From an uncultured virus (IMG/VR IMGVR_UViG_3300006737_000001) (Duplodnaviria; Heunggongvirae; Uroviricota; Caudoviricetes): a DNA stretch of 64,000 nucleotides. Each line of letters starts with the position of its first letter. Position 1 is the stretch's first letter. Both the position numbers and the translations under genes were made by a program. Of the stretch, positions 4,631 to 35,712 are shown piece by piece. The notes under the pieces were generated by a model that was not told the DNA's origin, did no database searches, and saw only the letters and a program-made list of their open reading frames with translations. The stretch is taken from the IMG/VR virus record IMGVR_UViG_3300006737_000001, positions 1 to 64,000 of that record; one strand, given 5' to 3'.

Positions 4631-6301
4631 TTAGATTCCCCTTAAGGATTGCTTTAAAAGTCTAGGATTGCGTCTAGTTGTCGCAAAAAGTGGCCGTTTA
4701 CTATAGGTTCCTGCGTTATTAGCGTTATTTCTACTTATTGGTCTAGATACAACACCTGCACCATAGTTTCCTGTCATAGGTAGCATACTTAAAGTAGCAT
4801 GTAATCCCATTGCAGAACTATCACAATAATCATCGTGTTTACCACTTGGTGCTGAAATCTTTTCAGTTTTATCAGCAGCATCCATTGTATATTCTAAATC
4901 AATATGTTCTCTTGTCCACTTATGAATTAACTTAGCTTCATTAGCAGGTAAGTTTTCAGGATTAGGTACTCTTACTCTTCCTTGTTGAATATATGATTGG
5001 AAATCTCTGTACATCTGAGTTTTAGTCCCTTTGGGACCACCTGTAAAAACAAACGCCACAAAATGTATATTAGCATCTAAACACCCTATCCGTAAGTCTT
5101 GTTCAACCGCACCACCAATACCAGTACAGTCCACAATGAGACGAGTAGCCCCAAGACCAAGGGCAACATCCATAATACGTTTACGTTGGTATGGAATATC
5201 ATGTCCACCAGTTCTGGGGTTGATTTCTTCAACGTAAATAAGTCGTGCAATATTTTCTTTGTCAGATTTATCAAGGGACCATGCACTAATGACAGTAGAA
5301 TTAACAGATTTGCCAATGTCAACACTAACATTAATATTGCTTCCTCCCGACTGTCCATCCCCATCCAACCTAGTAAGTTTGTAATCATCATAACACCTTT
5401 TTATTTTTTCTGCATTAAACACATTCGATACCGACTCTACAAATTCACATTCATATTCAGTTCGCCAATGTATGGAGTCTTCTCCCCACTCCATCATTTT
5501 ATCTAACATTTCTTCGTCTGTGTAAGGTGCTGAATAAGCTTCACCTTTGTTCACTGCATCTCTCCATGTATAGTGTAATCTTTTAAAAGTATCTGCATAG
5601 CCGTCGTCATATAAATATTTATACATGTGGTTATCTTTAGACTTAGGTGTACCCAAATTAATAAAAGGAGCTTTATTAGCAACAATAGAAGGCTCTACAT
5701 TATCAATGAACAACTTATCGTCGATGAGTGGAGACTCATCAACAACTAAGAAAGTAGGGTGTTGCCCTCGTATAGCTTGACCTTGGTTACTAGGCGCTAA
5801 TGGAGCCCTACGCATTATTGTGCCCCCCTTAAGTGTTATATTGGGCTTGTTATGAAAACGATAATTCTTAACTAAGCCATTCAAAAAAGGGTTATCAGCA
5901 AAATGTCTATAACAATAATTAAATATTAAAGCTGCTTGGTCTTCTGTAGGAGCAAGTATAAATACTAAATCTCTAAATCTATTAAAAAACATATATATAG
6001 TTACCGCTACAGACAATGCGAACGATTTCCCACTGCCTCGTGGAGCTAAGATAGCTAATTTGGTTTGTTTACCATCATCTCTTTCCATTAAACATTCTAA
6101 TACTATATCTTCTTGTAGTGGTCTTAATTTTAAAGGCCGTTGTTTACCATCAATTAAATATGTTGTACAAAAAGCTCTAAGCAATTTGCGCATTTTTTCT
6201 TTATCTCGTCTACAACTTTTGAATATATTCTCTAAAGAGCGTGAATCTAATCCACCTTTACCTGTCAACAGGCTCTTCAGAGGGCTTTTGGGTTTCGTCA
6301 T
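4631..6301 (-). CDS. terL: Terminase large subunit
   Basis: Walker A APRGSGKS, Walker B LVVDES, GTP coupling motif, RNase H-like VDIG...HDDYCDS. Confidence 0.93.
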   Translation of the reverse strand: MTKPKSPLKSLLTGKGGLDSRSLENIFKSCRRDKEKMRKLLRAFCTTYLIDGKQRPLKLRPLQEDIVLECLMERDDGKQTKLAILAPRGSGKSFALSVAVTIYMFFNRFRDLVFILAPTEDQAALIFNYCYRHFADNPFLNGLVKNYRFHNKPNITLKGGTIMRRAPLAPSNQGQAIRGQHPTFLVVDESPLIDDKLFIDNVEPSIVANKAPFINLGTPKSKDNHMYKYLYDDGYADTFKRLHYTWRDAVNKGEAYSAPYTDEEMLDKMMEWGEDSIHWRTEYECEFVESVSNVFNAEKIKRCYDDYKLTRLDGDGQSGGSNINVSVDIGKSVNSTVISAWSLDKSDKENIARLIYVEEINPRTGGHDIPYQRKRIMDVALGLGATRLIVDCTGIGGAVEQDLRIGCLDANIHFVAFVFTGGPKGTKTQMYRDFQSYIQQGRVRVPNPENLPANEAKLIHKWTREHIDLEYTMDAADKTEKISAPSGKHDDYCDSSAMGLHATLSMLPMTGNYGAGVVSRPISRNNANNAGTYSKRPLFATTRRNPRLLKQSLRGI

Positions 6302-14696: not shown

Positions 14697-15000
14697 ACGT
14701 ATAATTTTAACCTTTGACACTATATAAGGCTTTCTGTCTCCAAACTGAGGAGTGCTATATAGAGCTTAGTATTGTTATTAATAGTAGCTTACCTATTATA
14801 TCTATATATAGCTATATAATGACTTTCAAAATTTCACTCGATTTGTTTAAAGGGGTAGTCAAAGAAAATAGACGATGTGCCTTATAATTTTAGACGGGGG
14901 GCTGAGATACTGAGAGACTACGCGAGAAGCTGAGAATATGAGCCTTAACCGGTGTTCTTTTTGGAGCTATAGAATAAAGAGCTAAGCACGGATTGACCTA

Positions 15001-15014
15001 AAATCTTTATAAGT
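15001..15014 (+). promoter_or_regulatory. First rightward BRE/TATA promoter
   Basis: AAATCTTTATAAG, 28 nt before leaderless ATG 15034. Confidence 0.65.
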
Positions 15015-15033
15015 AGGTTGCTATTCTCACATT

Positions 15034-15219: not shown

Positions 15220-15547
15220 TCAAAAGTATTTTGTGTATCGATTAGCCCAACAGCAAGAAAAGACATCGTATCATTTCTTAGATGCTGATTTCGGTAGCGA
15301 GGCCACTAAGGAAGCCGTGTATTACGGTATCACCTCAGACCCTCAAAGCCGTCTATCTAAGCACCGACCTAAAAAGGGTCAAGATATCAGCCTAATTGTT
15401 ATGGCTGAGTTTGATAACGTATTCGAGGGTTTAGCTCATGAAGCTAACTTAGTTTGGGACCATGTCAAGAAATACGGTAAAGAACCAAAATTTCAAGGTA
15501 TGGCCGGTATAGGAAACAAAGGTTATACTTACGGGGGGAATAAGTAA
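15212..15547 (+). CDS. GIY-YIG nuclease-like protein
   Basis: YFVYRL...VYYGITSDPQSRLSKH...E; ATG 15212 preferred. Confidence 0.7.
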   Translation: MNNQKYFVYRLAQQQEKTSYHFLDADFGSEATKEAVYYGITSDPQSRLSKHRPKKGQDISLIVMAEFDNVFEGLAHEANLVWDHVKKYGKEPKFQGMAGIGNKGYTYGGNK

Positions 15548-15615
15548 AACGATAGGTGACTCTAAGACTCCGGTCTTAGGGCACTAAATATCAAATACTG
15601 ATATAGGAAAAAAAC

Positions 15616-15873
15616 ATGGACATAAAAACATACATGAAAAGAGCTTACGCAACAAAGGACATGAATAGGTCAAACTATCATGAATCTAACGCATTACATC
15701 ATTTAGTAGGTCAATTAACTTATTTGGCCGATACTACCACATTATCCGGTAGAGAGCTAAACGGTAATGAATTAAGGACATATGGAGTTCACGTAATCAA
15801 AAGAATTAAAGAAATAGTAAAAGATTATGAAACAGGCAAAAACGAAGGAATCAATACAAAGGGAGGTGAATAA
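15616..15873 (+). CDS. Hypothetical protein
   Basis: 85 aa ORF with AGGA SD. Confidence 0.65.
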   Translation: MDIKTYMKRAYATKDMNRSNYHESNALHHLVGQLTYLADTTTLSGRELNGNELRTYGVHVIKRIKEIVKDYETGKNEGINTKGGE

Positions 15874-16014
15874 GTGAAATTCGAAATAGAATTAAATAAG
15901 TATGATATCGACCAAATGAATAAAAATCGATATGGACATGATGATGTGATAACTTATGGCTATATGTTAGACATACTACATAACATCGTCGACCAAATAC
16001 ACGACCAACAATAA
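15874..16014 (+). CDS. 46-aa hypothetical protein
   Basis: GGAGGTGA SD then GTG MKFEIELNKYDIDQ... Confidence 0.55.
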   Translation: MKFEIELNKYDIDQMNKNRYGHDDVITYGYMLDILHNIVDQIHDQQ

Positions 16015-16083
16015 AGGCCGTGTGGGGGGTATGGGAGGGCTCCGGCCCTCTCAACCTATACCCAATACATGGAGGTAACTAAA

Positions 16084-16215
16084 ATGGATAACAAAACATC
16101 AATAGCTGTAATTAGTGCATTGAAATATAAACTTCAAAACGAAGATTGTAAAATCAATTTACCAAAAGCAACTTATGCAAAAGCATTAAGAAATAGTCTT
16201 ATCAGACTAAGATAA
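16084..16215 (+). CDS. 43-aa basic protein
   Basis: GGAGGT SD; MDNKTSIAVISALKYKL... Confidence 0.55.
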   Translation: MDNKTSIAVISALKYKLQNEDCKINLPKATYAKALRNSLIRLR

Positions 16216-16302
16216 ATATATAAGGCCCTTGAATACGAGGGATTTTACCTGCGTGGGTGAGAACCTGCGCGGGTGAGAAACAGCCCAGATGAGAAAGTGA
16301 GA

Positions 16303-16354
16303 TTTTCCACTCGTGTGAAAAAACCTTTATATAGGGTAGTGTTCTTGGTATATT
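16303..16354 (+). promoter_or_regulatory. Palindromic box + BRE/TATA cassette promoter 1
   Basis: TTTTCCACTCGTGTGAAAAAACCTTTATATAG...TTGGTA, then ATG. Confidence 0.8.
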
Positions 16355-16477
16355 ATGAGCAGAGGAGAACCATTTGGCAGTTGCGAGGACTGCGGGCTTG
16401 ATGAGGTCGAACTATTCGGCGGACTGTGTGAAGATTGTGAAACAGAAATGTTTGCGACTTTCTGGACAGGAGACTGA
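16355..16477 (+). CDS. 40-aa zinc-finger microprotein
   Basis: MSRGEPFGSCEDCGLDEVELFGGLCEDCETEMFATFWTGD; leaderless. Confidence 0.7.
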   Translation: MSRGEPFGSCEDCGLDEVELFGGLCEDCETEMFATFWTGD

Positions 16478-16513
16478 GAGAAACCTTTATATAGGGTGAC
16501 TCAATGGGATACT

Positions 16514-16597
16514 ATGAGAAAATTAAGCATACGAGAAATTAAACTTCAAACAATCGCATTAAGAAGAATACGCAAAGAAATGGAAAAGAATCTTTAG
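16514..16597 (+). CDS. 27-aa basic microprotein
   Basis: MRKLSIREIKLQTIALRRIRKEMEKNL, 28 nt after its own AAACCTTTATATAG. Confidence 0.6.
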   Translation: MRKLSIREIKLQTIALRRIRKEMEKNL

Positions 16598-16599
16598 AT

Positions 16600-16825
16600 T
16601 CCATGAGTCCCCAACACTGTAAGATGTGGCCGTAGGAGTAGGTGCACCTTTTGGAAGAGGCAAGTGTATGAGTAAGTTTAATAAACTTTCCAGCATGGGG
16701 ACAAGAGGAGACGCCTGACAAGTGATGGCGAAGGGCCAGTGGCATAAGTCCGCCCGAGCGTTAAACGTAGCGACGCATCTCCAGCCCAGTGAGCCGGCCT
16801 ACTACGGTGGGACAGCTGGGCGCCC
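16600..16825 (+). ncRNA. Candidate structured RNA with K-loop and pseudoknot
   Basis: GC-rich, no plausible sense ORF; GTCCCCA/TGGGGAC, GCCCAG/CTGGGC, cgc-CTGA-caa-GTGATG-gcg. Confidence 0.55.
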
Positions 16826-16876
16826 TTTTCCACTCATGTGAAAAAACCTTTATATAGACACACCCGTTGGTAATAT
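16826..16876 (+). promoter_or_regulatory. Palindromic box + BRE/TATA cassette promoter 2
   Basis: TTTTCCACTCATGTGAAAAAACCTTTATATAG...TTGGTA, then ATG. Confidence 0.8.
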
Positions 16877-17026
16877 ATGACTAGAAAACATTTTGTAGCA
16901 ATAGCTCAGTTATTAGCCAAGCATGACGCAGACCTTAATATGGTCCGAGACTTTGCCGGTATGTGTGCCGAACACAACCCACGCTTCGACAGAGAAACCT
17001 TTATAAAGGCCTGCTCAATGGAGTAA
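16877..17026 (+). CDS. 49-aa helical viral protein
   Basis: MTRKHFVAIAQLL...NPRFDRETFIKAC; leaderless. Confidence 0.7.
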   Translation: MTRKHFVAIAQLLAKHDADLNMVRDFAGMCAEHNPRFDRETFIKACSME

Positions 17027-17027
17027 T

Positions 17028-17171
17028 ATGAGTAAAATACAAGACATGAGAAACGCCCACCGTTTCCGCAGAGTAGCACGCAGAACCATAACCAAAAACA
17101 AGATTGACTTAGGAGTCCATGAGCAACTTATGGCTATCCGTTTGGGTCTTGCTGAGGATGTGAGAAATTGA
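17028..17171 (+). CDS. 47-aa basic protein
   Basis: MSKIQDMRNAHRFRRVARR...; promoter embedded in preceding ORF. Confidence 0.65.
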   Translation: MSKIQDMRNAHRFRRVARRTITKNKIDLGVHEQLMAIRLGLAEDVRN

Positions 17172-17284
17172 AAAGCATCTTAGATATTTTAGATGACATG
17201 GTCATCTCTGGCATAGATGAGGCAGGGGACTATATTGTCCTCTGCGGGTGTGAAGATGCACCTTGCTGTGGGTGCAACCTGTGA
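17168..17284 (+). CDS. 38-aa Cys-rich microprotein
   Basis: TTG start overlapping TGA; ends CGCEDAPCCGCNL. Confidence 0.55.
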   Translation: MKSILDILDDMVISGIDEAGDYIVLCGCEDAPCCGCNL

Positions 17285-17402
17285 GCTACGACAAACCACT
17301 CAAACGCAGTTGGAAGAAAGAAACAAATAAGATTATCAAAAAGGCCAGCCAATAGCTCGTTTGTTTTTCGGACACCTCCGGGGGGTAGGGCCTCCCCCCA
17401 CC

Positions 17403-17453
17403 TTTTCCACTTGCGTGAAAAAACCTTTATATAGACATACTCATTAGTATATT
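17403..17453 (+). promoter_or_regulatory. Palindromic box + BRE/TATA cassette promoter 3
   Basis: TTTTCCACTTGCGTGAAAAAACCTTTATATAG; preceded by G-run/C-run hairpin 17379-17399. Confidence 0.8.
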
Positions 17454-17690
17454 ATGAGCAAAAACTTATGTGGTAAGACACGCAAGACTGATGACCCTTA
17501 TGAGGTCTGGACTGGCCCACGTGGCTTTGAATGGAGAGTATTAAAAAAATACCAGAACGCTGAGAACGAAGCAAAGAATCCTCACGCCCGATGGTTCTGT
17601 GCTGTTAAGTCAGACTTTACCTATGGTTCTTTTGAACTTGGTGATGTGTATGTCAGTGAGATTAAGAGCATGGGGGAAAAGCTTATATAG
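17454..17690 (+). CDS. Hypothetical viral protein
   Basis: 78 aa, WRVLKKYQ...RWFCAVKS...ELGDVYVSEI; leaderless. Confidence 0.75.
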   Translation: MSKNLCGKTRKTDDPYEVWTGPRGFEWRVLKKYQNAENEAKNPHARWFCAVKSDFTYGSFELGDVYVSEIKSMGEKLI

Positions 17691-17709
17691 GGACACCCTA
17701 TTGGTTATT

Positions 17710-18125
17710 ATCGAGTGGGGAGCCCAAATTACCCCCACTCCTTACAGTTATCAGCTGTAACACCGTGACCTGAGAACTGAGACCAGAATAGACCATACGC
17801 AACAACGAGACACTAACATAACAAATACTAGCTGACAGTGCTGACCAATCCCTTTCCGGTCGATGCGCATCTAAGTTTTAGAACGACGTGTAGCTAACAT
17901 TTTGTATCACCTTTGAATCACTTTATCCCTGTTATAGAGTCAATCCGTTAAGCTATGATGTAATTCTCTGCATCTCTTTTCATCCATCTTTCGTGAAGGA
18001 TATCCTTTTGACTGATGGCAGGTCACACCTTGTGTGGCGCTACCTATGAAGATTGTCGCGCCCTCGGCAACCGCTCCCTAAGGTGTTTCTTAAATCAGGC
18101 CGAGCCTTAGGTGAAGTTGCATTTT
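17710..18125 (+). ncRNA. Candidate ~415-nt promoter-driven structured RNA
   Basis: Promoter AAAAGCTTATATAG...TTGGT with ATC (not ATG) at the start position; nested helices; ends in hairpin plus T-run. Confidence 0.65.
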
Positions 18126-18127
18126 AT

Positions 18128-18179
18128 TTTTCCACTTGTGTGAAAAAAGCTTTATATAGGGGTTCCCCCTTGGTAATAC
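18128..18179 (+). promoter_or_regulatory. Palindromic box + BRE/TATA cassette promoter 4
   Basis: TTTTCCACTTGTGTGAAAAAAGCTTTATATAG...TTGGTA, then ATG. Confidence 0.8.
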
Positions 18180-18416
18180 ATGAGCCAAGCAACTCAGACT
18201 AAGACCAATCTTCCTTGGAAGAATGGAAGCAAGGAGGTCGACTACTTCGTAGAAATCGGCACGACTCCGTATGGTAAATACGGTTTATACAAAGAAATGA
18301 TTCCTGTAGGAACAGGTAGCAGAGGAAGACACATGGAACTCGCTCGTGAGATTCGTCTGTCAAATCCAGAAGTCTTTGAGAACTTAGAACTAAGACAAAT
18401 AGTCAGCAGGGGTTAA
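18180..18416 (+). CDS. Hypothetical protein
   Basis: 78 aa, leaderless. Confidence 0.7.
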   Translation: MSQATQTKTNLPWKNGSKEVDYFVEIGTTPYGKYGLYKEMIPVGTGSRGRHMELAREIRLSNPEVFENLELRQIVSRG

Positions 18417-18445
18417 CCTTAAATAGGCACACTCATTGGTATAGT

Positions 18446-18778
18446 ATGACTAAAGCAAAGATGGATTACCTTTGGGCTCCAAAGGATGAAAGACTCGTGA
18501 GTTCTTTATTGGACTCGCTGGGATTTGCTCGTGTTGGTGTATCTCAACGATACCCAACCGGAGTAAAGTATGACTGCCTCGTAGCAATATGTGATGTCAT
18601 CGGTTCAAACGATAAGACAGCATCTATGGTTGCATCTCGCACTCATGAACTGCAATCCAAACGGAAAGCAACAGGTAAAGCACCATCGGTTGATTCAGTC
18701 GTTTCTGCTCTTGCATCTGGTAAGATGTCAGAAGCTGATTTGAAGAAAGCGATGAAGAAAGCAGGACTATTGAAATAG
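18446..18778 (+). CDS. Hypothetical protein
   Basis: 110 aa, leaderless from AACCTTAAATAG...TTGGTA. Confidence 0.7.
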   Translation: MTKAKMDYLWAPKDERLVSSLLDSLGFARVGVSQRYPTGVKYDCLVAICDVIGSNDKTASMVASRTHELQSKRKATGKAPSVDSVVSALASGKMSEADLKKAMKKAGLLK

Positions 18779-18789
18779 ATAGATAATAA

Positions 18790-19010
18790 GCACCTGAGCA
18801 AGTCAGAAAACTGCTCACCTTATATTTATGGAAGTAGCTCTTCCGTAATCGGGTATGGCCGAACAAGTCCGCCACGGACTAAGGCACAGGACTGCGCAAA
18901 CCGAGAAGCGACTGCTGGAGGGATGCAAAACTGGTATGGGTTCTACTATGTAGTGGCATAAACCCATTGGAGGTATACATTAAATCCTCCTACCCATCCT
19001 TATTTTTTTT
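18790..19010 (+). ncRNA. Candidate multibranch structured RNA
   Basis: TGAGCA/TGCTCA, TTATGGAAG/CTTCCGTAA, AGTCC/GGACT, ATGGGTT/AACCCAT, GGAGG/CCTCC, GGGTA/TACCC; ends in T8. Confidence 0.5.
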
Positions 19011-19021
19011 ATAATTTTTAT

Positions 19022-19039
19022 TTTTCCACTCGAGTGAAA
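19022..19039. promoter_or_regulatory. Fifth palindromic box without downstream TATA
   Basis: TTTTCCACTCGAGTGAAA. Confidence 0.6.
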
Positions 19040-19485
19040 CTTTTTCAAGATGCCTCAGCTCAACAAACCCCTCCTCCTCAGTTCGCTTTACAGAGCTCGT
19101 GAGAAACCGTTATCGGGCAGTGAGAAACTGCGCTCTCAGTTCAGGTTCAAACCAGAACCAGAGGTCAGTAGGGCCAGATGAGAAAATAGTCTCAGTTGAG
19201 CACAAGCTCTACTAAGATTTTCGGTAGGCTACAATGAGAAAATGCTTAATGGAGCTTAGTTCGACACGTAATGTGTTCGTGCTCGAACTGTAGTAGTAAT
19301 AGTTATCAGCCTATATTATCTCAGTTAAGCTTTATTATAATGCTCTATTACGCAAAGCTCTACTGAGTAATTAAGCTTTACTTAGTTAAGCTTTACTAAG
19401 CTCTTTACTTACAGCAATAATTAGCATAACTAAGCTATATCTTAATATAGTTAATATAGGGAACACGAACTATATAAAGTTTTGC
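19040..19485. repeat. Non-coding short-repeat region (candidate origin or terminal-repeat boundary)
   Basis: TGAGAAA x4, TTAAGCTTTA x3, AAGCTCTACT x2, AT-rich; leftward TATA at 19470-19483. Confidence 0.55.
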
Positions 19486-19586
19486 ACGAAAAAGCACCCC
19501 GTTTTTTATACTCAGTTTATTTTTTGTGCTGGGTTCTCAGTCCACAAGGGGAAACGCTTATATAGGGGTATATTGATGTAGATACG

Positions 19587-19805
19587 ATGACTATGACCGA
19601 CATCGACACATTAGCAATACAACTAAAAAGCATGACTGCCAAACAGTTACAACAACTGTTAAGTGCAACCCCGAACCGAGACGGTTCCGCAATCAAAGCC
19701 CGTAAGATACGTGCAACTGAGACATACTTCAGGAATGTAAAGAACAATGGATTATATCCACATAACTTTGAGTCCTTCCCTCAGTTCAGAGAGGTCTTAC
19801 CTTGA
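19587..19805 (+). CDS. Hypothetical protein
   Basis: 72 aa, 30 nt after GAAACGCTTATATAG. Confidence 0.65.
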   Translation: MTMTDIDTLAIQLKSMTAKQLQQLLSATPNRDGSAIKARKIRATETYFRNVKNNGLYPHNFESFPQFREVLP

Positions 19806-20149
19806 GTGACGTAATCGTTAAGTTCAATAACTACATGACTCAGCACACAGACAAAGTCCCTTTGTTAAGTGTTCAGTCAACTGATGATAAACGTTTCACA
19901 GTGCTGAGGGAATTATTAAATTCCGTCTTCGATGATGTAGAAGACAATGCTTGGTCAGTATCAGTGAACTTAGGAAAGTTCGTAGATGCCCTCAGCACAA
20001 TGGAACAAAAAGATATAGATACTATATCACGAACAGTGAAGAAGTATCAAGTCAAAGGCACTTCGAGTGGTATCTCAGGTGAGAGAACCTATGGATATGA
20101 CCGAAGCCGTGTTGACCGTAAGATGATTAGAAGAAGGAGGGCCAACTGA
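19802..20149 (+). CDS. Hypothetical protein
   Basis: 115 aa, TTGA overlap. Confidence 0.6.
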   Translation: MSDVIVKFNNYMTQHTDKVPLLSVQSTDDKRFTVLRELLNSVFDDVEDNAWSVSVNLGKFVDALSTMEQKDIDTISRTVKKYQVKGTSSGISGERTYGYDRSRVDRKMIRRRRAN

Positions 20150-20262
20150 TGAACTGCGTAGATTGTGGACAGTATTCAACATATGATACAGGTGGACACG
20201 AAGTGAATAAGTATTCATGCGAACACTGTTTAGTAGAAGATTACATTACAGGTGAACTATGA
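20149..20262 (+). CDS. 37-aa zinc-finger microprotein
   Basis: MNCVDCG...CEHC; overlaps both neighbours. Confidence 0.6.
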   Translation: MNCVDCGQYSTYDTGGHEVNKYSCEHCLVEDYITGEL

Positions 20263-21437
20263 GTAGAAGAGAAGGAAGACCATCACCAACTGAGTCAGCT
20301 ACTGACTTCCCTCTACACTATGAACGTGTAGGCGGAGACGGTAGATATTGGCACGTGAGTGAAGACAAGCGTGGAGTGAGAAGATGGAAGAAGGGATTAT
20401 ATCATGGTTCAGATGAGGATAAACTTCTCAGTTCAACAACCGAAACGCTTATAAAGGATGATATATCTGGAGATACAATGGAAGACAAAACCGACCACAG
20501 AGGACTCGACAGTCTATTCGACCGAGACAGTCCCACGTTAGAAGAGGAACCTACCCCCGAAGAAGTGGTAGAAGTAGAGAAAGACACAGTGATGTCTAAA
20601 CTAAGAGGGTCAGTCAATGTGCCCGAAGAGTTTAAATTCGCTGATGACATGACATTCTATACTATGTTGAGAAACATATTTAGAGGTAAAAACATTCTTA
20701 TCACAGGTCCCTCAGGATGTGGTAAGTCGAGTCTCGGTAAGATATTAGCTGATATCACTGCAAAAGACTTTTATAGTTTTAACTTCGGTGACACTATGAA
20801 TCCCTCAGCTAAGTTATTGGGTGACACTAAGTATGACAAAGAAGCCGGAACATGGTTCAAACCATCTCGGTTCGTCAATGCAATACAAAGTGATTCATTC
20901 ATTATGTTAGATGAGGTAACACGTGACCGAACAGGTGACTTAGCTAACATTCTCATGCCGGTATTAGATGGTCAAAAGTATTTAGCTCTCGATGAGAGTG
21001 AAGATAGCGATACTGTCTCAGTTAGTAAAGGTGCGTTCTTTTACGCTACTGCTAACATAGGTAGAGAGTATCTCGGTGCATCTCATGATTTAGACCGAGC
21101 ATGGAAAGATAGATTCACAGGTGGTATATATGAATTAGAATACTTACCACCACAGAAAGAGAAAGAACTGATACAGAACAGAAACCCTCAGCTTACAGAC
21201 TACGATGGTGATAAGATTGTAGACTTTGCTAAGAGAGTGCGTGACTTACATTCTTCAGACGAACTCAATACTGCTGTTTCAACACGTATGTGTTTAGCAT
21301 CGGCTGAGTTAGTTGTTGATGGGATGCCTTTAGTCGATGCACTGAAACACACCTGTTTACCGTTCTACCCTGTTCAGGGTGGTGACGATACTGAGAGAGT
21401 TCGTATTATACAAGTTATTCAATCAATGGGTGAATAG
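20259..21437 (+). CDS. MoxR/CbbQ-family AAA+ ATPase
   Basis: GPSGCGKS, IMLDE, ATAN, LDRAWKDRF, STR sensor 2; alternative start 20478. Confidence 0.88.
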   Translation: MSRREGRPSPTESATDFPLHYERVGGDGRYWHVSEDKRGVRRWKKGLYHGSDEDKLLSSTTETLIKDDISGDTMEDKTDHRGLDSLFDRDSPTLEEEPTPEEVVEVEKDTVMSKLRGSVNVPEEFKFADDMTFYTMLRNIFRGKNILITGPSGCGKSSLGKILADITAKDFYSFNFGDTMNPSAKLLGDTKYDKEAGTWFKPSRFVNAIQSDSFIMLDEVTRDRTGDLANILMPVLDGQKYLALDESEDSDTVSVSKGAFFYATANIGREYLGASHDLDRAWKDRFTGGIYELEYLPPQKEKELIQNRNPQLTDYDGDKIVDFAKRVRDLHSSDELNTAVSTRMCLASAELVVDGMPLVDALKHTCLPFYPVQGGDDTERVRIIQVIQSMGE

Positions 21438-21824
21438 ATGGTTAAGAAGAAAGTATTACGTAGAAAGCACACATATTGGCATCAGTTGGCTAAGTTCCTT
21501 ATACTGAATGGTTACAAACCAACAATGATAGGAAAGATAATCAAGGATGTATTCCCCGATACTGAGGTCAATGGTAGACACGTAGGTGCATACAAACGTA
21601 GATTGATACAAGATGAGGATATTCTCATCCCAAACAAACCAACTATGAATATCAATGAAGTAAGAGAAATAGCTGAAGGCTTAGTTAGTAACGAAGATAT
21701 GTTTATATATAAATGTGTTATCGGTTCAGCTAAGAGAAGCCTTAAGTGCTTCGAGTATAAGTTCCGTAGTGAGGATAAAGATTTAGTAAGTGAGGTAGAT
21801 AAATGGATTATGGCGATTCAATAG
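21438..21824 (+). CDS. Hypothetical (possible HTH) protein
   Basis: 128 aa between AAA+ and vWA genes. Confidence 0.55.
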   Translation: MVKKKVLRRKHTYWHQLAKFLILNGYKPTMIGKIIKDVFPDTEVNGRHVGAYKRRLIQDEDILIPNKPTMNINEVREIAEGLVSNEDMFIYKCVIGSAKRSLKCFEYKFRSEDKDLVSEVDKWIMAIQ

Positions 21825-23917
21825 ATGAATGGACTGAGGACAGTGAAGATGATTTCTGTTATGCGTGTGACGATTGGACTGATGCCGACGGTCATGGCAA
21901 CTGTAAAGATTGTGGCAACAGTTACACTACAGTAGACCCATTCGTCAGTCCGACTATAGCAAAGACATACAGTTCACCCGCACCTACTGTCTCAGCACAT
22001 GGTGACCTTTGGAATAGAGGTTCGGGTTTCACATGGGGTGGTAGTTCATATTGGTCCGGTGGTGGAACTACTTCATGGGGTAATTGGTCTCGGTCTACAA
22101 ACGACAGTGCTCGTATGCTTAAACACAAAAGACATTTAGATTCTCTTTGTAAAGTAGTAGACCCAACTGTGAAACATTCATTACACTTCGCAACTGATTC
22201 GAAGAACTATTCGAACATGGCTAATGGAACTATATATGTAGATGGGACTCTCATTGAGAATGATGATGACAAGCTCGATGTATTAGCTGGTCTCTCAATT
22301 CATGAGAAGTTACACTTAGTTCATACTAAACCATTAACTAAATGGGAACGTGAGTATAGTCACCAAAACCACCTCAGTCCGGCACAGGAAAGATTACTAC
22401 ATAACATATGTAATATTATAGAAGATGAATATATAGAATCTCAGTTAGCTAAGACTCATGCCGGATACACTATGTATATTGAGAAGGTTAAACAACACTT
22501 CTTTGGTAAGCATGGCCACAAGATAGATGAGTTCAACGGTAATCCTATCGCTGACATAATGAATACATTGTTAGCTATGGTAAGATACCCACAATCTATC
22601 TCAGCTGACCGTAGAAAGAAACACTCTAAACATATTCAGTTCTTTGCCCGTGCTCTAAAAGATGCACTAACTGATAGACATTCAACCTTTATGGCTATGG
22701 ATAGTATATATTGTTATATGAATCAACTCGCTAAAGAAGAAGCTAAGAAACACAAAGGCACCGACGAAGAAGAAATACTACGACGTGCTGATGAAAGACT
22801 CAAAGACCTTTTAGGTGAGTGGGGTGAATCTGTTGGTGAAGAGATGTCAGCTGAAGACATGGAACGTATCAAAGATAGACTTATAGAAAAAGAACGTGAC
22901 GAAGCTGAACGTGGTGATAGATATGACCGTAAAGAGAAGTTATCACGAGCTTTGGATAAGTTCGCAAAAGAACTCGCTGATTATAGTTTAGATAGGGATA
23001 CCATCTCAGACGAACTCGCTAATGAAATAGATGAGTTAGCTGACAGTGACTACTCTGAAGAGAAGTGGGATGTGTCCCGTGCTCTCGGTTTGAGACAAGG
23101 TGGTAAAGTTACATGGCGTAATCAAAGAGCCTCTTCAGACTATGATAAGAGTAAATACACTGAGGCTGAAAGAAATATGAAATCAGCAATTGGTCAACTA
23201 AAGAGAAAGATACAACTATATGGTGACACACGTATTAACACCATTCGTAACCAACGAAGAGGTAAGTTAGATAAACGTATGCTACATAAGATACCTCTCG
23301 GTCGACCCGACTTATTCAAGAATGTGATTATTGACGAAGACAAACCACTCGATGTATGTCTCTTAGTCGATGAGTCGGGTAGTATGGGTTCATGGAAGAT
23401 GGCTAAAGCACGTGAGACTGCGATTGCTTTACGTGAATCACTCAAAGACAATCAAGCTCTCAACTTATGGGTGTTTGGTCACACAGCTGACGGTTATGAA
23501 TGGGATGGTAAAGGTGACACTAATATGTCAGTGTATTGGTCACCTACATATAAATCAGATATAAAAGCTATGGGTGCTATGAGAGCACGTAGTGAAAACA
23601 GAGATGGTATGGCTATCCTCGCATCAGCCGAGAGAGTCAAAGCTGAGTCACCCTCATTAGGTGGTAACAAACTTATGATTGTTATCTCAGACGGTGAACC
23701 ATCAGCAGACAAATACAGATTCCCAATCAGTGTGCCACATACTAAGAAGTGTGTCAGACACATAGAGGGACAGGGATGGAATGTAATTCAAATAGGCATC
23801 TCAGGTGCACGTGAACATATTATGAAAGATATGTTTACTAATTACATCCTGTGTGATGATACAGGTGAGTTACCAACTAAGGTAAGTAAAGTAATTAGAA
23901 GGGTGATAAAAATATGA
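21803..23917 (+). CDS. vWA (MIDAS) domain protein, CobT-like partner of the AAA+ ATPase
   Basis: LLVDESGSM, VISDGEP; N-terminal CxxC..CxxC and HEKLH motif. Confidence 0.85.
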   Translation: MDYGDSIDEWTEDSEDDFCYACDDWTDADGHGNCKDCGNSYTTVDPFVSPTIAKTYSSPAPTVSAHGDLWNRGSGFTWGGSSYWSGGGTTSWGNWSRSTNDSARMLKHKRHLDSLCKVVDPTVKHSLHFATDSKNYSNMANGTIYVDGTLIENDDDKLDVLAGLSIHEKLHLVHTKPLTKWEREYSHQNHLSPAQERLLHNICNIIEDEYIESQLAKTHAGYTMYIEKVKQHFFGKHGHKIDEFNGNPIADIMNTLLAMVRYPQSISADRRKKHSKHIQFFARALKDALTDRHSTFMAMDSIYCYMNQLAKEEAKKHKGTDEEEILRRADERLKDLLGEWGESVGEEMSAEDMERIKDRLIEKERDEAERGDRYDRKEKLSRALDKFAKELADYSLDRDTISDELANEIDELADSDYSEEKWDVSRALGLRQGGKVTWRNQRASSDYDKSKYTEAERNMKSAIGQLKRKIQLYGDTRINTIRNQRRGKLDKRMLHKIPLGRPDLFKNVIIDEDKPLDVCLLVDESGSMGSWKMAKARETAIALRESLKDNQALNLWVFGHTADGYEWDGKGDTNMSVYWSPTYKSDIKAMGAMRARSENRDGMAILASAERVKAESPSLGGNKLMIVISDGEPSADKYRFPISVPHTKKCVRHIEGQGWNVIQIGISGAREHIMKDMFTNYILCDDTGELPTKVSKVIRRVIKI

Positions 23918-24009
23918 ATGATGATAATAATATGAAAGAAGCTCAGTGGTTTATATTAATCGCTGGGTTCATGATGTTATGGATGGTCATGATTATGATG
24001 CTGGGTTAA
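23914..24009 (+). CDS. 31-aa membrane microprotein
   Basis: ATGA overlap; WFILIAGFMMLWMVMIMMLG. Confidence 0.5.
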   Translation: MNDDNNMKEAQWFILIAGFMMLWMVMIMMLG

Positions 24010-24010
24010 G

Positions 24011-24424
24011 GGTGACAGGTAATAAGTTGAGACTTATTTTACTTAGTCGGTTTTGCTCATAGCTCAGCTTATTACCCACCAAACGCACGAAGACCTTGAA
24101 CTTTGAAGCTCAGTTTGTTTATCAGGCCACGCTGAAAGTTTTTTCAGAGACATCAGTAGTAGGACAGTATAAACAGAGAGGTAGCTATCGGTATGGTGAT
24201 AGCTGGATACAAAAGAACCAAATATATCGTTTAGCCTAATCATAATGGCGACGAGTATATGTCAAGCATACCTCAGTATACCCCTGTAAATCTATCGTGA
24301 CAGTTATGTCAGATGAGTGTGGAATGCTACATTGTAGCGTGGTATACGAAAAGAAAGAGCACGATGGTTTCAATTGCGAAGCCACACGACTCTTACTGAG
24401 AAGCCGTTCTCTCTTCGTGCACCA
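24011..24424 (+). ncRNA. Candidate structured RNA(s): 14-bp hairpin, then ~340-nt domain closed by 9-bp stem + ACCA
   Basis: GCACGAAGA(24085-93)/TCTTCGTGC(24412-20)+ACCA; at least six internal hairpins; no plausible sense ORF. Confidence 0.6.
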
Positions 24425-24481
24425 CAACCTTTATATAGGATAATCAAATATATTGAAATATAATCAAAAGGAATTGAAAAT

Positions 24482-24919
24482 ATGCAAACATTTTTACCAA
24501 CAAAAAACTTTAGAACATCAGCCAAACTATTAGACTATCGTCGTCTCGGTAAGCAAAGAGTAGAAGGACTTCAGCTCATCAACTCACTCAGTCCGGACTA
24601 CGATAAGAAAGGTTGGCTCAACCACCCCGCACGTTTAATGTGGGTTGGTTACGAAAACGCTTTGAAACATTACACTAACGTAATGATAGAAGAGTGGGTT
24701 GCACGTGGATATAACAACACGATGCAATTATATGAAATAGAAGGGCCGATAGTATACCCTCAATGGTTAGGCTATCCGGAACTGCATAAGTCACATCGAA
24801 TGAACCTACTTCGTAAGGATTACGACTTTTATAAACAGCACTTCGATGACGATGCACAAACGGACCTCACAATCATAAACGAGTATGAATACTATTGGCC
24901 ACCGGAGAAAGAAAGATGA
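24482..24919 (+). CDS. Pyrimidine-dimer DNA glycosylase (T4 endonuclease V-like)
   Basis: MQTFLP...LD.RRLGKQRVE..Q, NHPA..MW.G, SHR.NLLRKD; promoter AACCTTTATATAG 24426-38. Confidence 0.85.
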   Translation: MQTFLPTKNFRTSAKLLDYRRLGKQRVEGLQLINSLSPDYDKKGWLNHPARLMWVGYENALKHYTNVMIEEWVARGYNNTMQLYEIEGPIVYPQWLGYPELHKSHRMNLLRKDYDFYKQHFDDDAQTDLTIINEYEYYWPPEKER

Positions 24920-25013
24920 TAAGAGAATTATTAGTGTGGATAGATAAGAAGTTTGGTTTGAACCGAACTAAGAAACTTATGATAAGACCACGTAAATACG
25001 GAGCAAAGAAAAA

Positions 25014-26447: not shown

Positions 26448-27053
26448 ATGAAAGAGATAATGGAAGAATATAGCACCACGTTCTTTGAATGTATGAGTGC
26501 GTGGCCAGATGATATCAAAGAAGATATATACAAACTATACGCATACCTCAGGGTATGTGATGAGATGGTTGAAGGTGAGAAGACTTTACATGACTTCAAA
26601 CATTGGAGGGAAGTCATAGAACAATTCTACGAAGTGAGTGATAAGTATCAGTTCGAAGGCGAGTGGCTCTCAGACTTTCACATAAGTATGTATCAAGACA
26701 TGGTGAAGAAAGAACATACTATAGTGTCTATGTTAGAATACTGTAAGGGTTCAGCTGAATCAGTTGGTATGATGATGTCAAAGATATTAGGATGTCACCC
26801 ACGCTGTGAGATACACGCCAGAGCATTAGGTAGAGCATTTCAAGTTATTAACTTCATACGAGATTATGATGAAGATGTAGATAATGGTTATCATTACATC
26901 ACAGATAACTTTAGTGCATATTTAGAAATATTTTATCAGGATTTAGATAACGGCATGGATGGAATAGATTATATACCTAAAGAGCTACAACCACCCATTC
27001 TTATGGCTGTAGAAAAATACATGGCTGTAGCTAAGAAAGTAAGTGAAGCCTAA
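26448..27053 (+). CDS. Squalene/phytoene synthase family protein
   Basis: LYAYLRVCDEMVE, YCKGSAESVG, ALGRAFQVINFIRDYDED. Confidence 0.82.
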   Translation: MKEIMEEYSTTFFECMSAWPDDIKEDIYKLYAYLRVCDEMVEGEKTLHDFKHWREVIEQFYEVSDKYQFEGEWLSDFHISMYQDMVKKEHTIVSMLEYCKGSAESVGMMMSKILGCHPRCEIHARALGRAFQVINFIRDYDEDVDNGYHYITDNFSAYLEIFYQDLDNGMDGIDYIPKELQPPILMAVEKYMAVAKKVSEA

Positions 27054-27506: not shown

Positions 27507-27821
27507 GTGATTAAAATGGATAGAACAAAACAAATCAACGCATTGATGGATGCTGTAAAGCATTATCAAAAGACAGGAAAGCACAAACAGGTTAGTATTC
27601 AATACAACCCTGTAAACAGAACACAGTTTGACTTCGCTTCATGGAAGCACAGTTCAGACAGTGACTCTGTAAGGAAAATCCTACCCGAAGACATTAGAAT
27701 GTCCTCAGAAGGTAACTTCTATGTAGTAGGTAAAGATAACAGATATAATCTAAAACAATATGCGTCTCAGTTCGCACAGAGACCACGTGCATATAGATTA
27801 GATAGGCTGGTAGTAAAATGA
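27507..27821 (+). CDS. Stand-alone WYL-domain-like protein
   Basis: VSIQY...R.ILP...FYVVGKD...RAYRLDRL; promoter at 27470-82. Confidence 0.65.
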   Translation: MIKMDRTKQINALMDAVKHYQKTGKHKQVSIQYNPVNRTQFDFASWKHSSDSDSVRKILPEDIRMSSEGNFYVVGKDNRYNLKQYASQFAQRPRAYRLDRLVVK

Positions 27822-30508: not shown

Positions 30509-31981
30509 ATGAAAAAATATGAAATATACGATTTGCTAAGATATTTTCACAATGCAAAGAAAAAAGACGGAACACTTTTCCCTATACTAGGAGAGGATTC
30601 GTTAGCTCTAACTACAAGTCTATCTTACTTGTTAGAAGATACTAACTTCTGTATCAAAGCATACAGTGGAACAGGTAAGACTGTATTGATGGAAGCTGTG
30701 GCAAACCTACTTCCAGAGGAGTATGTCTACTCAGTAGAACATATGTCAGAGACAGCAATATGGTATGACGAGGATAAAATCAACAAAGCTAGATTTGTTT
30801 TTATTCCAGAAGCACAAAAGATACCAGAGGGTGTCATGGAAATCATTAAAACATGGGCAGACGGGCGAACAGCCCAACGTAAAAAGACAGATGTTACTAT
30901 CAAGATGGCAGTAACACAGTGGTTAAAACCTAAATATGTTTTAATGGCAGTAGCAGTAGAGAATGATAAAGGTTCAGCTATGTTTGATGCTGAGTTAGAA
31001 CGTAGATGTATGATTATGCATACAAACCCTACAGTCAAACAGACAGAAAGAGTTATCAAACATAAACTTTTACATTCAGCTTCACCAAAAGCCTCTATGT
31101 CTTCAATGTCAGATAAAGAAATAAAAGATTTAAAGAAACACATACTAACTACATTGAGAGAAAGAGACGAAGATGATGCGACTGTATTAAAGAATCCATG
31201 CGCCCCATTTCTATTTGACGCAATACCATCAGCATTCCCTGTATCACGGTCGAAGGTTCAGTATCTATTGAAGTTGATTAATGCTATAGCAAGGTTTTAT
31301 CCAGATGAGATAGTTAAAGTCAAACAAGATGGTATACAATATGGACTAGTATCACCTAAACATAACTGGCTCGGACTGAGAATATATCTTAACTCATTTG
31401 TAGAAGAATGCTTACACATGCCAAGTCATGGAACAGACATACTTAAACTATTTCCCGAAACTAGATTAGATAGGTTTGGTTTTGCAGATAGTGAGACAGT
31501 TAAGATGTCAGAGAATGAATTGAAAAAGGCTGCTAAATCAGCTGGTCTACCATTTACCAAATTAAGACCAGTTATAGCAGGTTTAATGATGACAGGGTTC
31601 TTAGAGTGTGATGAAGAAGGAAGTAAAAAACTTTACTATAAGAGCCCACTCATTACAGAACCAGTATCAAAAATAAATTGGAGTGATTTAATTGAAGAAA
31701 CGAAAGAGTTTATACGAAAAGAGTGGCCTAAAGTATCTGATGAATACATTGGGCGCAGTTGTAGCAGTATCAGGATTGTTGACCCGTTTAGTGGGGACAA
31801 CATTGAACTGGGTGCGAGAGCAGAGACAGCGGTAGAAGTTGACACTGGTGATTATCCGTCAGTGTTCAAGTCTTCTAGTGACGCTAAGATTAAAGACTAC
31901 GAGTCTTTTCTACTAAATGCAGAGGGAGATTACAATGACGAAGAAGACAAAGCAGTCAGAGAATACTTTCAGAAGAAGTAG
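30509..31981 (+). CDS. AAA+ ATPase, putative replicative helicase
   Basis: Walker A AYSGTGKT, degenerate Walker B FIPE, ELERR arginine finger, C-terminal winged-helix-like region. Confidence 0.6.
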   Translation: MKKYEIYDLLRYFHNAKKKDGTLFPILGEDSLALTTSLSYLLEDTNFCIKAYSGTGKTVLMEAVANLLPEEYVYSVEHMSETAIWYDEDKINKARFVFIPEAQKIPEGVMEIIKTWADGRTAQRKKTDVTIKMAVTQWLKPKYVLMAVAVENDKGSAMFDAELERRCMIMHTNPTVKQTERVIKHKLLHSASPKASMSSMSDKEIKDLKKHILTTLRERDEDDATVLKNPCAPFLFDAIPSAFPVSRSKVQYLLKLINAIARFYPDEIVKVKQDGIQYGLVSPKHNWLGLRIYLNSFVEECLHMPSHGTDILKLFPETRLDRFGFADSETVKMSENELKKAAKSAGLPFTKLRPVIAGLMMTGFLECDEEGSKKLYYKSPLITEPVSKINWSDLIEETKEFIRKEWPKVSDEYIGRSCSSIRIVDPFSGDNIELGARAETAVEVDTGDYPSVFKSSSDAKIKDYESFLLNAEGDYNDEEDKAVREYFQKK

Positions 31982-32249
31982 ACTTCCTAAGCGAGATGAG
32001 ATGTTTGCAGTAGTCATAGAGATGTCAGGGGGTTCTAGAATGAGAGCCCTCTGTGCAGACAGTAAAACCCGCATGATTAGAATCGGTGGTAAACTGAAGA
32101 AAAGAATGTGGTGTAGAGAGAATGATTTAATTATAGTTAAGCCTTGGGTTATACAGAGTGACCAAAAGGCAGACTTAGTTTATAGGTATCTCCCTACTGA
32201 GAGAAAGAATATAAGTAAAAAAATACCAGAGGAGTTAAACATATGGTGA
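31935..32249 (+). CDS. eif1a: Translation initiation factor aIF-1A
   Basis: RLP...EMFAVV.EMSGGSR...IRIGGKLKKRMW.RENDLIIVKPW..Q..KADLVYRY. Confidence 0.9.
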   Translation: MTKKTKQSENTFRRSRLPKRDEMFAVVIEMSGGSRMRALCADSKTRMIRIGGKLKKRMWCRENDLIIVKPWVIQSDQKADLVYRYLPTERKNISKKIPEELNIW

Positions 32250-35517: not shown

Positions 35518-35712
35518 ATGGATGAAAAAGAAAGTAAACCGTTGTCAGCCTTTTTGTCTGACGCAGAAGTCAAAGTGGTTTGGCGTGAAGAAGAAAGAAC
35601 TAAAGTAGGAAGAGGAATGATAACGAATGATGATGAAAATTTTGTATACCTTACTGGAGAAAAGGGAACCGTTATTGTTAATAAAAGAGATATTATTGCT
35701 ATAAAACAATAG
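35518..35712 (+). CDS. Sm/Hfq-like (LSm fold) protein
   Basis: 64 aa from ATG 35518; AFL..AEVKVVW...GRGMITNDDENFVYL...TVIVNKRDIIAIK resembles the Sm1/Sm2 pattern. Confidence 0.55.
   Translation: MDEKESKPLSAFLSDAEVKVVWREEERTKVGRGMITNDDENFVYLTGEKGTVIVNKRDIIAIKQ

Follow-up and report, generated by a model that had tools for sequence, protein, structure and literature searches.

RNAs that derive from the 3' end of an operon and act on the genes encoded there are exemplified by OppZ and CarZ of Vibrio cholerae, small RNAs (sRNAs) released from 3' untranslated regions (UTRs) which repress their own operons (PMC7398697). Viruses also encode RNAs that pair with viral mRNAs and control the infection cycle, such as c4 of phages P1/P7 (acting in trans), sar of P22 and OOP of lambda; each has one main target in a temperate phage and, within the covered passages of PMC12197685, none is archaeal or acts on a whole early block. 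Trans-acting sRNAs with known targets are few in archaea (PMC5867862, as far as its relevant sections go), and for HFTV1 antisense control has only been proposed, and as cis-acting (bioRxiv 10.64898/2026.09.13.751334, in the part of that preprint concerned). The switching-off of early genes in lytic archaeal viruses is largely an open question. This article describes an island of structured RNAs in the early region of an uncultured tailed virus (IMG/VR IMGVR_UViG_3300006737_000001), with emphasis on a hairpin, RNA 4a, whose loop probably serves as a 3'-derived antisense brake on the translation of multiple early genes. The window, meaning the whole stretch of DNA analysed, comprises the first 64 kilobases (kb) of the 67,299-nucleotide (nt) virus record, which has direct terminal repeats and is rated complete.

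RNA 4a (24011..24080, plus strand) is a long hairpin located directly 3' of an AAA-vWA operon and its small membrane-protein open reading frame (ORF; 23914-24009). Its U-rich apical loop (24031..24063, plus strand) is complementary to the starts of leaderless early genes and is proposed to be an antisense guide. The proposed targets form a block of small genes (16303..20478, plus strand; repeat families D1, D2, and D5) taken from an automatic list of promoter-plus-ATG pairs. These genes carry a repeated promoter consisting of a transcription factor B recognition element (BRE) and a TATA box, with the ATG about 23 nt further on, a spacing which implies that the small genes are leaderless; the layout of the block suggests that they are early.

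The longest perfect runs between the loop and the nine starts measure 8 nt (start at 16355), 7 (16514), 5 (16877), 9 (17028), 11 (17454), 7 (18180), 6 (18446), 6 (19587), and 10 (20478), so that 8/9 starts have runs of at least 6 nt, and the matches fall within the first 30 nt of the promoter-led genes. When all 26,690 windows of 40 nt on both strands of the genome were ranked, excluding the antisense of the starts themselves, the loop came first with a score of 9.5 against 5.53 ± 0.63 (two of the nine start windows lie 1 nt off, which leaves the runs unchanged). Predicted pairing energies reach -15.6 to -20.9 kcal/mol for six early-block starts, whereas the best of the 17 listed starts from 24482 onward attains -14.4 kcal/mol. 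Like trans-acting sRNAs of the OppZ, CarZ and c4 kind, RNA 4a exposes its seeds and is complementary to starts elsewhere in the genome.

The same signal occurs in related genomes. The comparison covered 28 of 49 distinct loci, those with at least three promoter-led starts, and used shuffled loops that keep the anti-start TCAT. The mean of the top three runs was 7.17 against 5.94 ± 0.11 for shuffles, with 28/28 loci above their own shuffle mean; early starts outscored downstream starts in 19/21 loci (p=0.0002), and offsets internal to or upstream of the genes scored 5.3-5.7. Loops matched targets of their own genome better than foreign ones (7.17 vs 6.64, p=0.00015 by a permutation that ignores relatedness). 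In addition, guide and targets change together: guides carrying CTTGGTC match changed targets in two genes (6/6 and 10/10, compared with 1/16 and 1/24 for other guides), the guide and several targets are altered together in locus L003, the seed for the AAA gene is changed on both sides in L004 and L008/L122, and a distant clade has other seeds that fit its own starts. Few of these guide-target changes are independent.

The seed that varies least spans the start codon and the bases right after it, and matches the AAA start over at least 7 nt in 24/32 sequences. This constancy, together with the mutual similarity of the viral early starts, would also suit a loop that mainly silences leaderless mRNAs of the host and fits viral starts through a shared Met-Ser/Thr-Lys start bias. 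However, shuffles that keep TCAT score lower in 28/28 loci, downstream viral starts score lower as well, and the changes in the guides follow those in the viral targets, so that host shut-off as the main role appears very unlikely.

Several observations weigh against an antisense function of the loop. The guides with CTTGGTC belong to one clade, so that the guide-target table represents one event, and locus L097 combines changed targets with the old guide. For the AAA start alone there is no own-genome advantage (7.72 vs 7.72, p=0.55), and the own genome ranks first for only 1/11 guides by run length and 2/11 by energy. The loop is only 8-10 nt long in L012, L062, L067, and L068, many seeds are just 6-7 nt, and the permutation p-values do not account for relatedness. 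The idea was formed after looking at the sequence, although the nine targets had been selected automatically, by a promoter rule. Finally, a single, shallow RNA run (share 0.05) gave contigs over coding genes as well as over a portion of RNA 4 and the end of the manA RNA described below, and left gap 1 and the greater part of gap 2, the sites of RNAs 1 and 2, uncovered; this run is uninformative on expression either way.

The antisense brake is based on conserved structure, complementarity above controls, and guide and targets changing together; we infer that RNA 4a is expressed, is processed from its operon, pairs with its targets in cells and represses rather than activates them. RNA 4a would be the 3' tail of the AAA-vWA transcript starting at 19587 or 20478, and would be made only after about 3.5-4.5 kb have been transcribed, which would introduce a delay. 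Its stem would then present the U-rich loop, carrying several short seeds, and these would base-pair with the initial ~30 nt of the virus's leaderless early mRNAs, among them both messages at the head of the hairpin's own operon, either blocking initiation or triggering decay. In this way the early phase would be brought to an end by a negative-feedback switch acting with a delay. Pairing at the start is established as a block to initiation for leadered sRNA targets; as the start codon of a leaderless mRNA is its 5' end, pairing there should block initiation too.

As described for OppZ and CarZ in the portion of PMC7398697 concerned with them, RNA 4a is located at an operon's 3' end, is complementary to starts of its own transcript and would exert negative feedback. 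It differs from them in being viral and archaeal, in facing leaderless 5' ends, and in holding several seeds within one loop directed at many separate genes. With the guide, nine candidate targets and naturally occurring compensatory variants all specified here, the idea can be tested without a cultured host.

Another possibility is that the RNAs act exclusively in cis, as 3' stabilizers or terminators, with the loop pairing only with the 5' end of its own operon. RNAs 1, 3 (manA), and 4 do occur at the 3' ends of coding transcripts, and the most constant seed is the one matching the AAA start. Nevertheless, the 11-nt longest match and several of the co-changes concern genes that have separate promoters and lie upstream of the T-runs that follow RNA 2 and manA; RNA 2 has its own promoter and 3/44 manA copies have a TATA box at -26. 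A purely cis-acting role is therefore considered quite improbable.

Two features of the early block deserve mention in their own right. The AAA ORF is annotated from 20259, but its true start is probably the internal ATG at 20478, located behind its own promoter; the 73 codons upstream may be a separate or variable segment. A palindromic element of families D2 and D3 precedes several early promoters and occurs once after manA (16303-16320, 16826-16843, 17403-17420, 18128-18145, 19022-19039); it is likely to be the site of a regulator.

RNA 4a lies in the last of four gaps (16600-16825, 17710-18125, 18790-19010, and 24011-24424) which an initial annotation had put forward as structured non-coding RNAs. 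The gaps exist where they were placed, and homologues were found for every one (30, 34, 44, and 34 sequences for gaps 1 to 4, window included). Covariation was evaluated with a G-test against a tree-based null written for this analysis (R-scape-like, but not R-scape; E<=0.05). All significant pairs are Watson-Crick in gap 1 (4/4), gap 3 (6/6, 44 copies), the gap 4 hairpin, namely RNA 4a (3/3, 32 sequences), and the gap 4 closing stem (2/2), whereas in the gap 2 core 9/23 are, the remainder being haplotype-block noise from recombining blocks. Compensatory changes, which the annotation had suggested looking for in homologues, are present in all four gaps; a coding control region gave 0 covarying pairs at the same threshold. 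Conserved small ORFs, named there as the explanation that would undo the proposal, were looked for and do not account for the gaps: in gaps 1-3 there is no conserved ORF and ORF lengths scatter across all three frames, and gap 4 ranges in length from 146 to 693 nt. Judged from these alignments, all four gaps are conserved structured RNAs under selection, and the early region is best explained as an island of four unrelated RNAs with different jobs.

Other attributes given to the gaps stood in part. They had been described as richer in GC or in complementary segments than their surroundings; the GC content is raised in gaps 1 (0.553), 2 (0.452), and 3 (0.466), the values for the genome and the nearby coding block being 0.38 and 0.401, and gap 4 is barely richer (0.418). 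Folding of single sequences gave z-scores of -0.24, -2.63, -2.63, and -4.46 for gaps 1 to 4, gap 1 being unremarkable by energy alone. Three gaps were said to end at T-runs: those 3' of gaps 2 and 3 are clear, while the one after gap 1 belongs to the palindrome upstream of a promoter. Likewise, the RNAs were not recognized as known families, but gap 3 corresponds to manA of Rfam; RNAs 1, 2, and 4 yielded no Rfam match at the gathering score, with only fragments at E>=0.42 within 15500-25000. None of the articles retrieved by literature searches (archaeal virus non-coding RNA, viral structured RNAs, phage sRNA, antisense, K-loop) describes RNAs 1, 2, or 4, although the supplements of PMC10690425 were searched in part and its 10,000 unnamed candidates may include them. 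As far as alignments can indicate, the window holds two well-supported RNA families absent from Rfam 15.

RNA 1 (core at 16599..16782, plus strand; 30 homologues, without Rfam match) consists of two domains and is located behind a 27-codon ORF (16514-16597); in the window genome it lacks a separate promoter. Domain A contains a 5-base-pair pseudoknot in which the 5' end (16599-16603) pairs with a hairpin loop (16652-16656), and domain B is a multiway junction followed by a variable 3' hairpin extending to ~16825. In the alignment 97.5% of cells are paired and 24/40 pairs change on both sides, levels which 0/500 shuffles equalled, while controls with the structure slid along the alignment reached at most 44% paired cells and 10 two-sided pairs. 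The pseudoknot pair 16603-16652 appears as AU (15), GC (8), CG (1), and UA (1), that is, four pair types with 25/25 sequences paired. By this alignment evidence RNA 1 shows the cleanest covariation of the gaps, despite its ordinary folding energy.

A K-loop-like hairpin in RNA 1 (16713..16729, plus strand) comprises a box D'-like CUGA, a 5-nt loop and a box C'-like GAUG, and is a candidate site for L7Ae. According to the definition in the portion of PMC8413462 used here, the CUGA, the short loop, GA-N-G, and the closing stem are all in place, with G instead of A as the last C' base. The pattern occurs in 29/30 copies of RNA 1 but in 8/34 of RNA 2, 4/44 of manA, and 4/34 of RNA 4, and genome-wide there are 16 chance-level matches; the suggestion that the RNAs engage L7Ae through K-loops thus holds for the RNA 1 motif only, as a candidate site by sequence. 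RNA 1 shares the D'-loop-C' hairpin with archaeal box C/D guide RNAs, which, as presented in the same portion of PMC8413462, have two pairs of C/D motifs, one single-stranded guide lying upstream of D and another upstream of D'. RNA 1 itself does not show this guide architecture, as it has a single motif and the upstream bases are within covarying helices. It is plausible, with a chance somewhat under one half, that RNA 1 is a ribonucleoprotein (RNP) bound by L7Ae.

Weak distant copies of RNA 1 lie directly behind manA in L022, L024, and L026, which indicates that the RNAs travel as a rearranging island; a model (R1) with one helix off by one column was used solely for finding these distant copies. 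Pattern matches in L139, L146, L149, and L161 were discarded because only a 17-nt query had matched. Small hairpins also shift position within the island (18790-18848; L022:4420-4480; upstream of RNA 1 in L027, L021, and L005) and are often separated by a CCTTAT linker (18818, 18998); these may be processing signals. Some relatives have a tRNA gene in the same island (L018:2891-2963; L026 about 5750-5800), and the window has none.

RNA 2 (17710..18125, plus strand; 34 homologues, z -2.63) is a stand-alone gene preceded by a BRE/TATA promoter (17678..17693, plus strand; repeat family D6, promoter scan) that has no following ORF. It is composed of small 5' hairpins, a branched rod core (17765-18026), a conserved 3' hairpin (18067-18120) and a T-run, with covarying Watson-Crick pairs in both the core (9) and the 3' hairpin (1). 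The arrangement of promoter, RNA and T-run is repeated in the distant locus L015. At the apex of RNA 2 there is a self-complementary palindrome (17862..17871, plus strand) and the loop of an upstream hairpin contains another (17752-17757, plus strand), both candidate dimerization sites. The apical palindrome measures at least 8 nt in 33/33 copies, in 11 spellings, whereas such palindromes occur at 0.8% of background positions; the upstream one measures at least 6 nt in 30/33 copies. As a palindrome centered on a loop cannot fully pair with itself, RNA-RNA dimerization would be the simplest reading; a site for a dimeric protein is possible.

Gap 3 contains a full-length manA RNA (18826..19000, plus strand; Rfam RF01745, model positions 1-192, 62.8 bits vs gathering 55.2) whose helices covary. 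Weinberg et al. (2010, PMC2864571), who described this motif from cyanophages, marine metagenomes and gammaproteobacteria, considered it a probable 5'-UTR element. In the window the motif belongs to an archaeal-type virus whose genes are leaderless, and it forms the 3' end of a transcript of small genes, with a T-run after it; the copies in general mostly lack a close ORF and sometimes have their own promoter. The 5'-UTR position, typical of the motif but not defining, is rarely seen, since only 8/44 copies are followed within 60 nt by an ORF of at least 40 codons; one of these 8 is the window copy, by virtue of a 46-nt match beyond its T-run, where there is no annotated gene. A T-run follows 13/44 copies. 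From its sequence context manA seems to fit a free RNA better than a 5'-UTR element, which argues against a plain 5'-UTR role and bears on the natural function of manA cages. A comparable grouping is the cluster wcaG, manA, and abiF of cyanophage S-CREM1, where several non-coding RNAs including manA lie within ~1 kb of a marine virus genome as they do here; that virus and its host domain are different and, in the passages of PMC9964418 on this cluster, the members other than manA are unrelated to RNAs 1, 2, and 4.

In vitro, manA variants other than this one assemble into cages based on pentamers (bioRxiv 10.64898/2026.07.01.735769, in the part describing them), and manA and RNA 2 may both be self-associating RNAs, a proposal with slightly less than an even chance. 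In a stronger version, RNA-only assemblies (manA cages, dimers or chains of RNA 2, multimers of RNA 4b) would be the main product, acting as sponges or scaffolds, with antisense activity secondary. The palindromes of RNA 2, kept in 11 spellings, agree with it as do the cages; however, the latter were obtained only in vitro and with other manA sequences, and the complementarity of the RNA 4a loop to gene starts is left unexplained. Assemblies as the main product are considered unlikely, but are compatible with the antisense brake as far as RNAs 2 and 3 are concerned.

RNA 4b (24085..24420, plus strand) is a multibranched body in which a fixed closing stem (2/2 Watson-Crick) encloses a variable interior of recurring short modules. 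Syntenic RNA 4 segments could be delimited in 34/60 cases, the range of lengths given above including RNA 4a. The modules were hand-picked; 19/68 co-occurring module pairs occur in both orders, and the plus strand folds more stably in 25/31 copies. One module, CCTAAT-CAT-WATGG (24235-24250; 11/31 copies), presumably resembles the 11-nt GNRA tetraloop receptor. RNA 4b could tentatively be viewed as a tolerant scaffold of interaction modules, though the weight lies rather against it. The ornate RNAs ROOL, GOLLD, and OLE are also long, multibranched, virus-associated, self-associating and of unclear role (bioRxiv 10.1101/2024.12.08.627333; bioRxiv 10.64898/2026.07.01.735769). The window RNAs without an Rfam match depart from these, RNA 4b varying nearly five-fold in length, with reordered modules and no fixed core.

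RNA 4b was also considered as a decoy made of a mosaic of rRNA pieces. A weak excess of 9-mers shared with E. coli 23S (110 vs 86.7 ± 11.1) vanished when only recurring cores were used, a comparison that included the rRNA sets of E. coli, three members of the class Nitrososphaeria and one Haladaptatus, the actual host's rRNA not being among them. Most of 108 comparisons with 16S, 23S, and 5S rRNA were within 2 standard deviations, the outliers being scattered in both directions without a consistent excess, and RNAs 1, 2, and 4 had no k-mer likeness to the rRNA sets compared. The mosaic decoy was rejected on these comparisons.

The initial annotation had also assigned the RNAs to one RNP system with viral Sm/Hfq-like and WYL proteins, deployed for host takeover, decoy or anti-defense. 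The Sm/Hfq fold of the 64-residue protein (35518..35712, plus strand; 473 homologues) was borne out: the predicted structure (predicted local distance difference test, pLDDT, 80) has an N-terminal helix and a five-stranded Sm barrel, aligns with Synechocystis Hfq (Z 8.9, root-mean-square deviation 2.0 over 59 residues), and 8/10 top rows of the fold search are Hfq or SmAP. The protein, a candidate RNA chaperone on the basis of this model, is highly conserved (81-94% identity among 42 aligned). It had no Pfam or PHROG match, DUF6897 appeared at rank 8 in the ESM Atlas, and a prediction of a four-copy homo-oligomer scored 0.30 against a mark of 0.42. The stand-alone WYL-like protein (27516..27821, plus strand) is weakly supported through its relatives, 27/50 homologues matching Pfam WYL (PF13280) at E<=0.1 (best 4e-05), and through weak fold matches to PafBC, CapW, BrxR, and DriD (Z 3.4-4.6) from a low-confidence model (pLDDT 59); the window protein itself has no Pfam match, and sequence searches of the PDB and ESM Atlas gave nothing usable for it.

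The existence of both families, the K-loop-like motif in RNA 1, and the U-rich loop of RNA 4a, U-rich single-stranded loops being typical Hfq substrates, would be in line with such RNPs. Yet no result links either protein to the RNAs; both are encoded 3-11 kb beyond gap 4 among replication genes, positionally unlinked to the RNA genes. The one functional signal points to the virus's own early mRNAs, and RNAs 1, 2, and 4 lack k-mer likeness to rRNA, which leaves the decoy idea unsupported. The proposed RNP system and its roles in takeover, decoy or anti-defense are accordingly not borne out, and this explanation seems improbable. A narrower role for the Hfq-fold protein, helping the RNA 4a brake, is doubtful. 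The literature search found no article on a viral Hfq. It is a speculative and unlikely extension that the virus carries an Hfq-sRNA timer in archaea, in which a multi-seed RNA cut from its operon and a viral Hfq-fold ring would silence the early block, with RNA 4b, manA and the palindromic and K-loop RNAs as exchangeable scaffolds.

A fifth gap (19016-19586), missed by the initial annotation, is the largest and is shared by a greater number of relatives than is any one of the four RNAs. Its left part contains repeated TGAGAA/CTCAG motifs; its right part, rich in AT, is almost complementary to itself and holds a TATA-like site on the minus strand at 19482. It yielded 0 significant covarying pairs, a zero that is only suggestive as the test mixed both strands; the fifth gap is a candidate replication origin or packaging site. 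Its DNA-like character, and the fact that palindromes also suit dimeric DNA-binding proteins, could be taken to mean that the four other gaps are DNA-level elements as well (cruciforms, recombination cassettes or protein sites). Frequent G-U substitutions, the four-way covarying pseudoknot pair of RNA 1, the Rfam match of gap 3 and the strand asymmetry of RNA 4b speak against this, and make it scarcely credible.

The window encodes a major capsid protein, portal, terminase, tape measure, PolB, primase, ribonucleotide reductase, a RecU-like resolvase, and aIF-1A (31917..32249, plus strand; 349 homologues), the last as the initial annotation had claimed (Pfam eIF-1a, E 1.8e-15). The leaderless BRE/TATA genes and the gene set are signs by which the virus appears to be a tailed archaeal virus with an archaeal host. 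In GTDB the aIF-1A homologue matches a sequence from a bacterial bin at 82% and one from a Nitrosopumilales bin at 42%; the former (L163, labelled Maricaulis) is probably a mis-binned contig of the same virus family. Marine contigs often contain relatives (the AAA gene matched 27 viral loci and had 423 metagenome matches, the best 80 of which were used), and no relatives were found among GenBank phages. Magroviruses A-C encode PCNA, clamp loader, MCM, and RadA beside PolB and primase (PMC5434244, in its passages on these genes). PolB and primase are present in the window genome, and none of the other four was seen among the scanned ORFs, a scan that did not extend to the final 3.3 kb of the genome or to some of the small ORFs. 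Gene orientation and GC skew switch strands at 14721-15033 and at ~41800, with divergent promoters near 14733, and a squalene/phytoene synthase homologue is encoded at 26448-27053 (Pfam E 2e-25).

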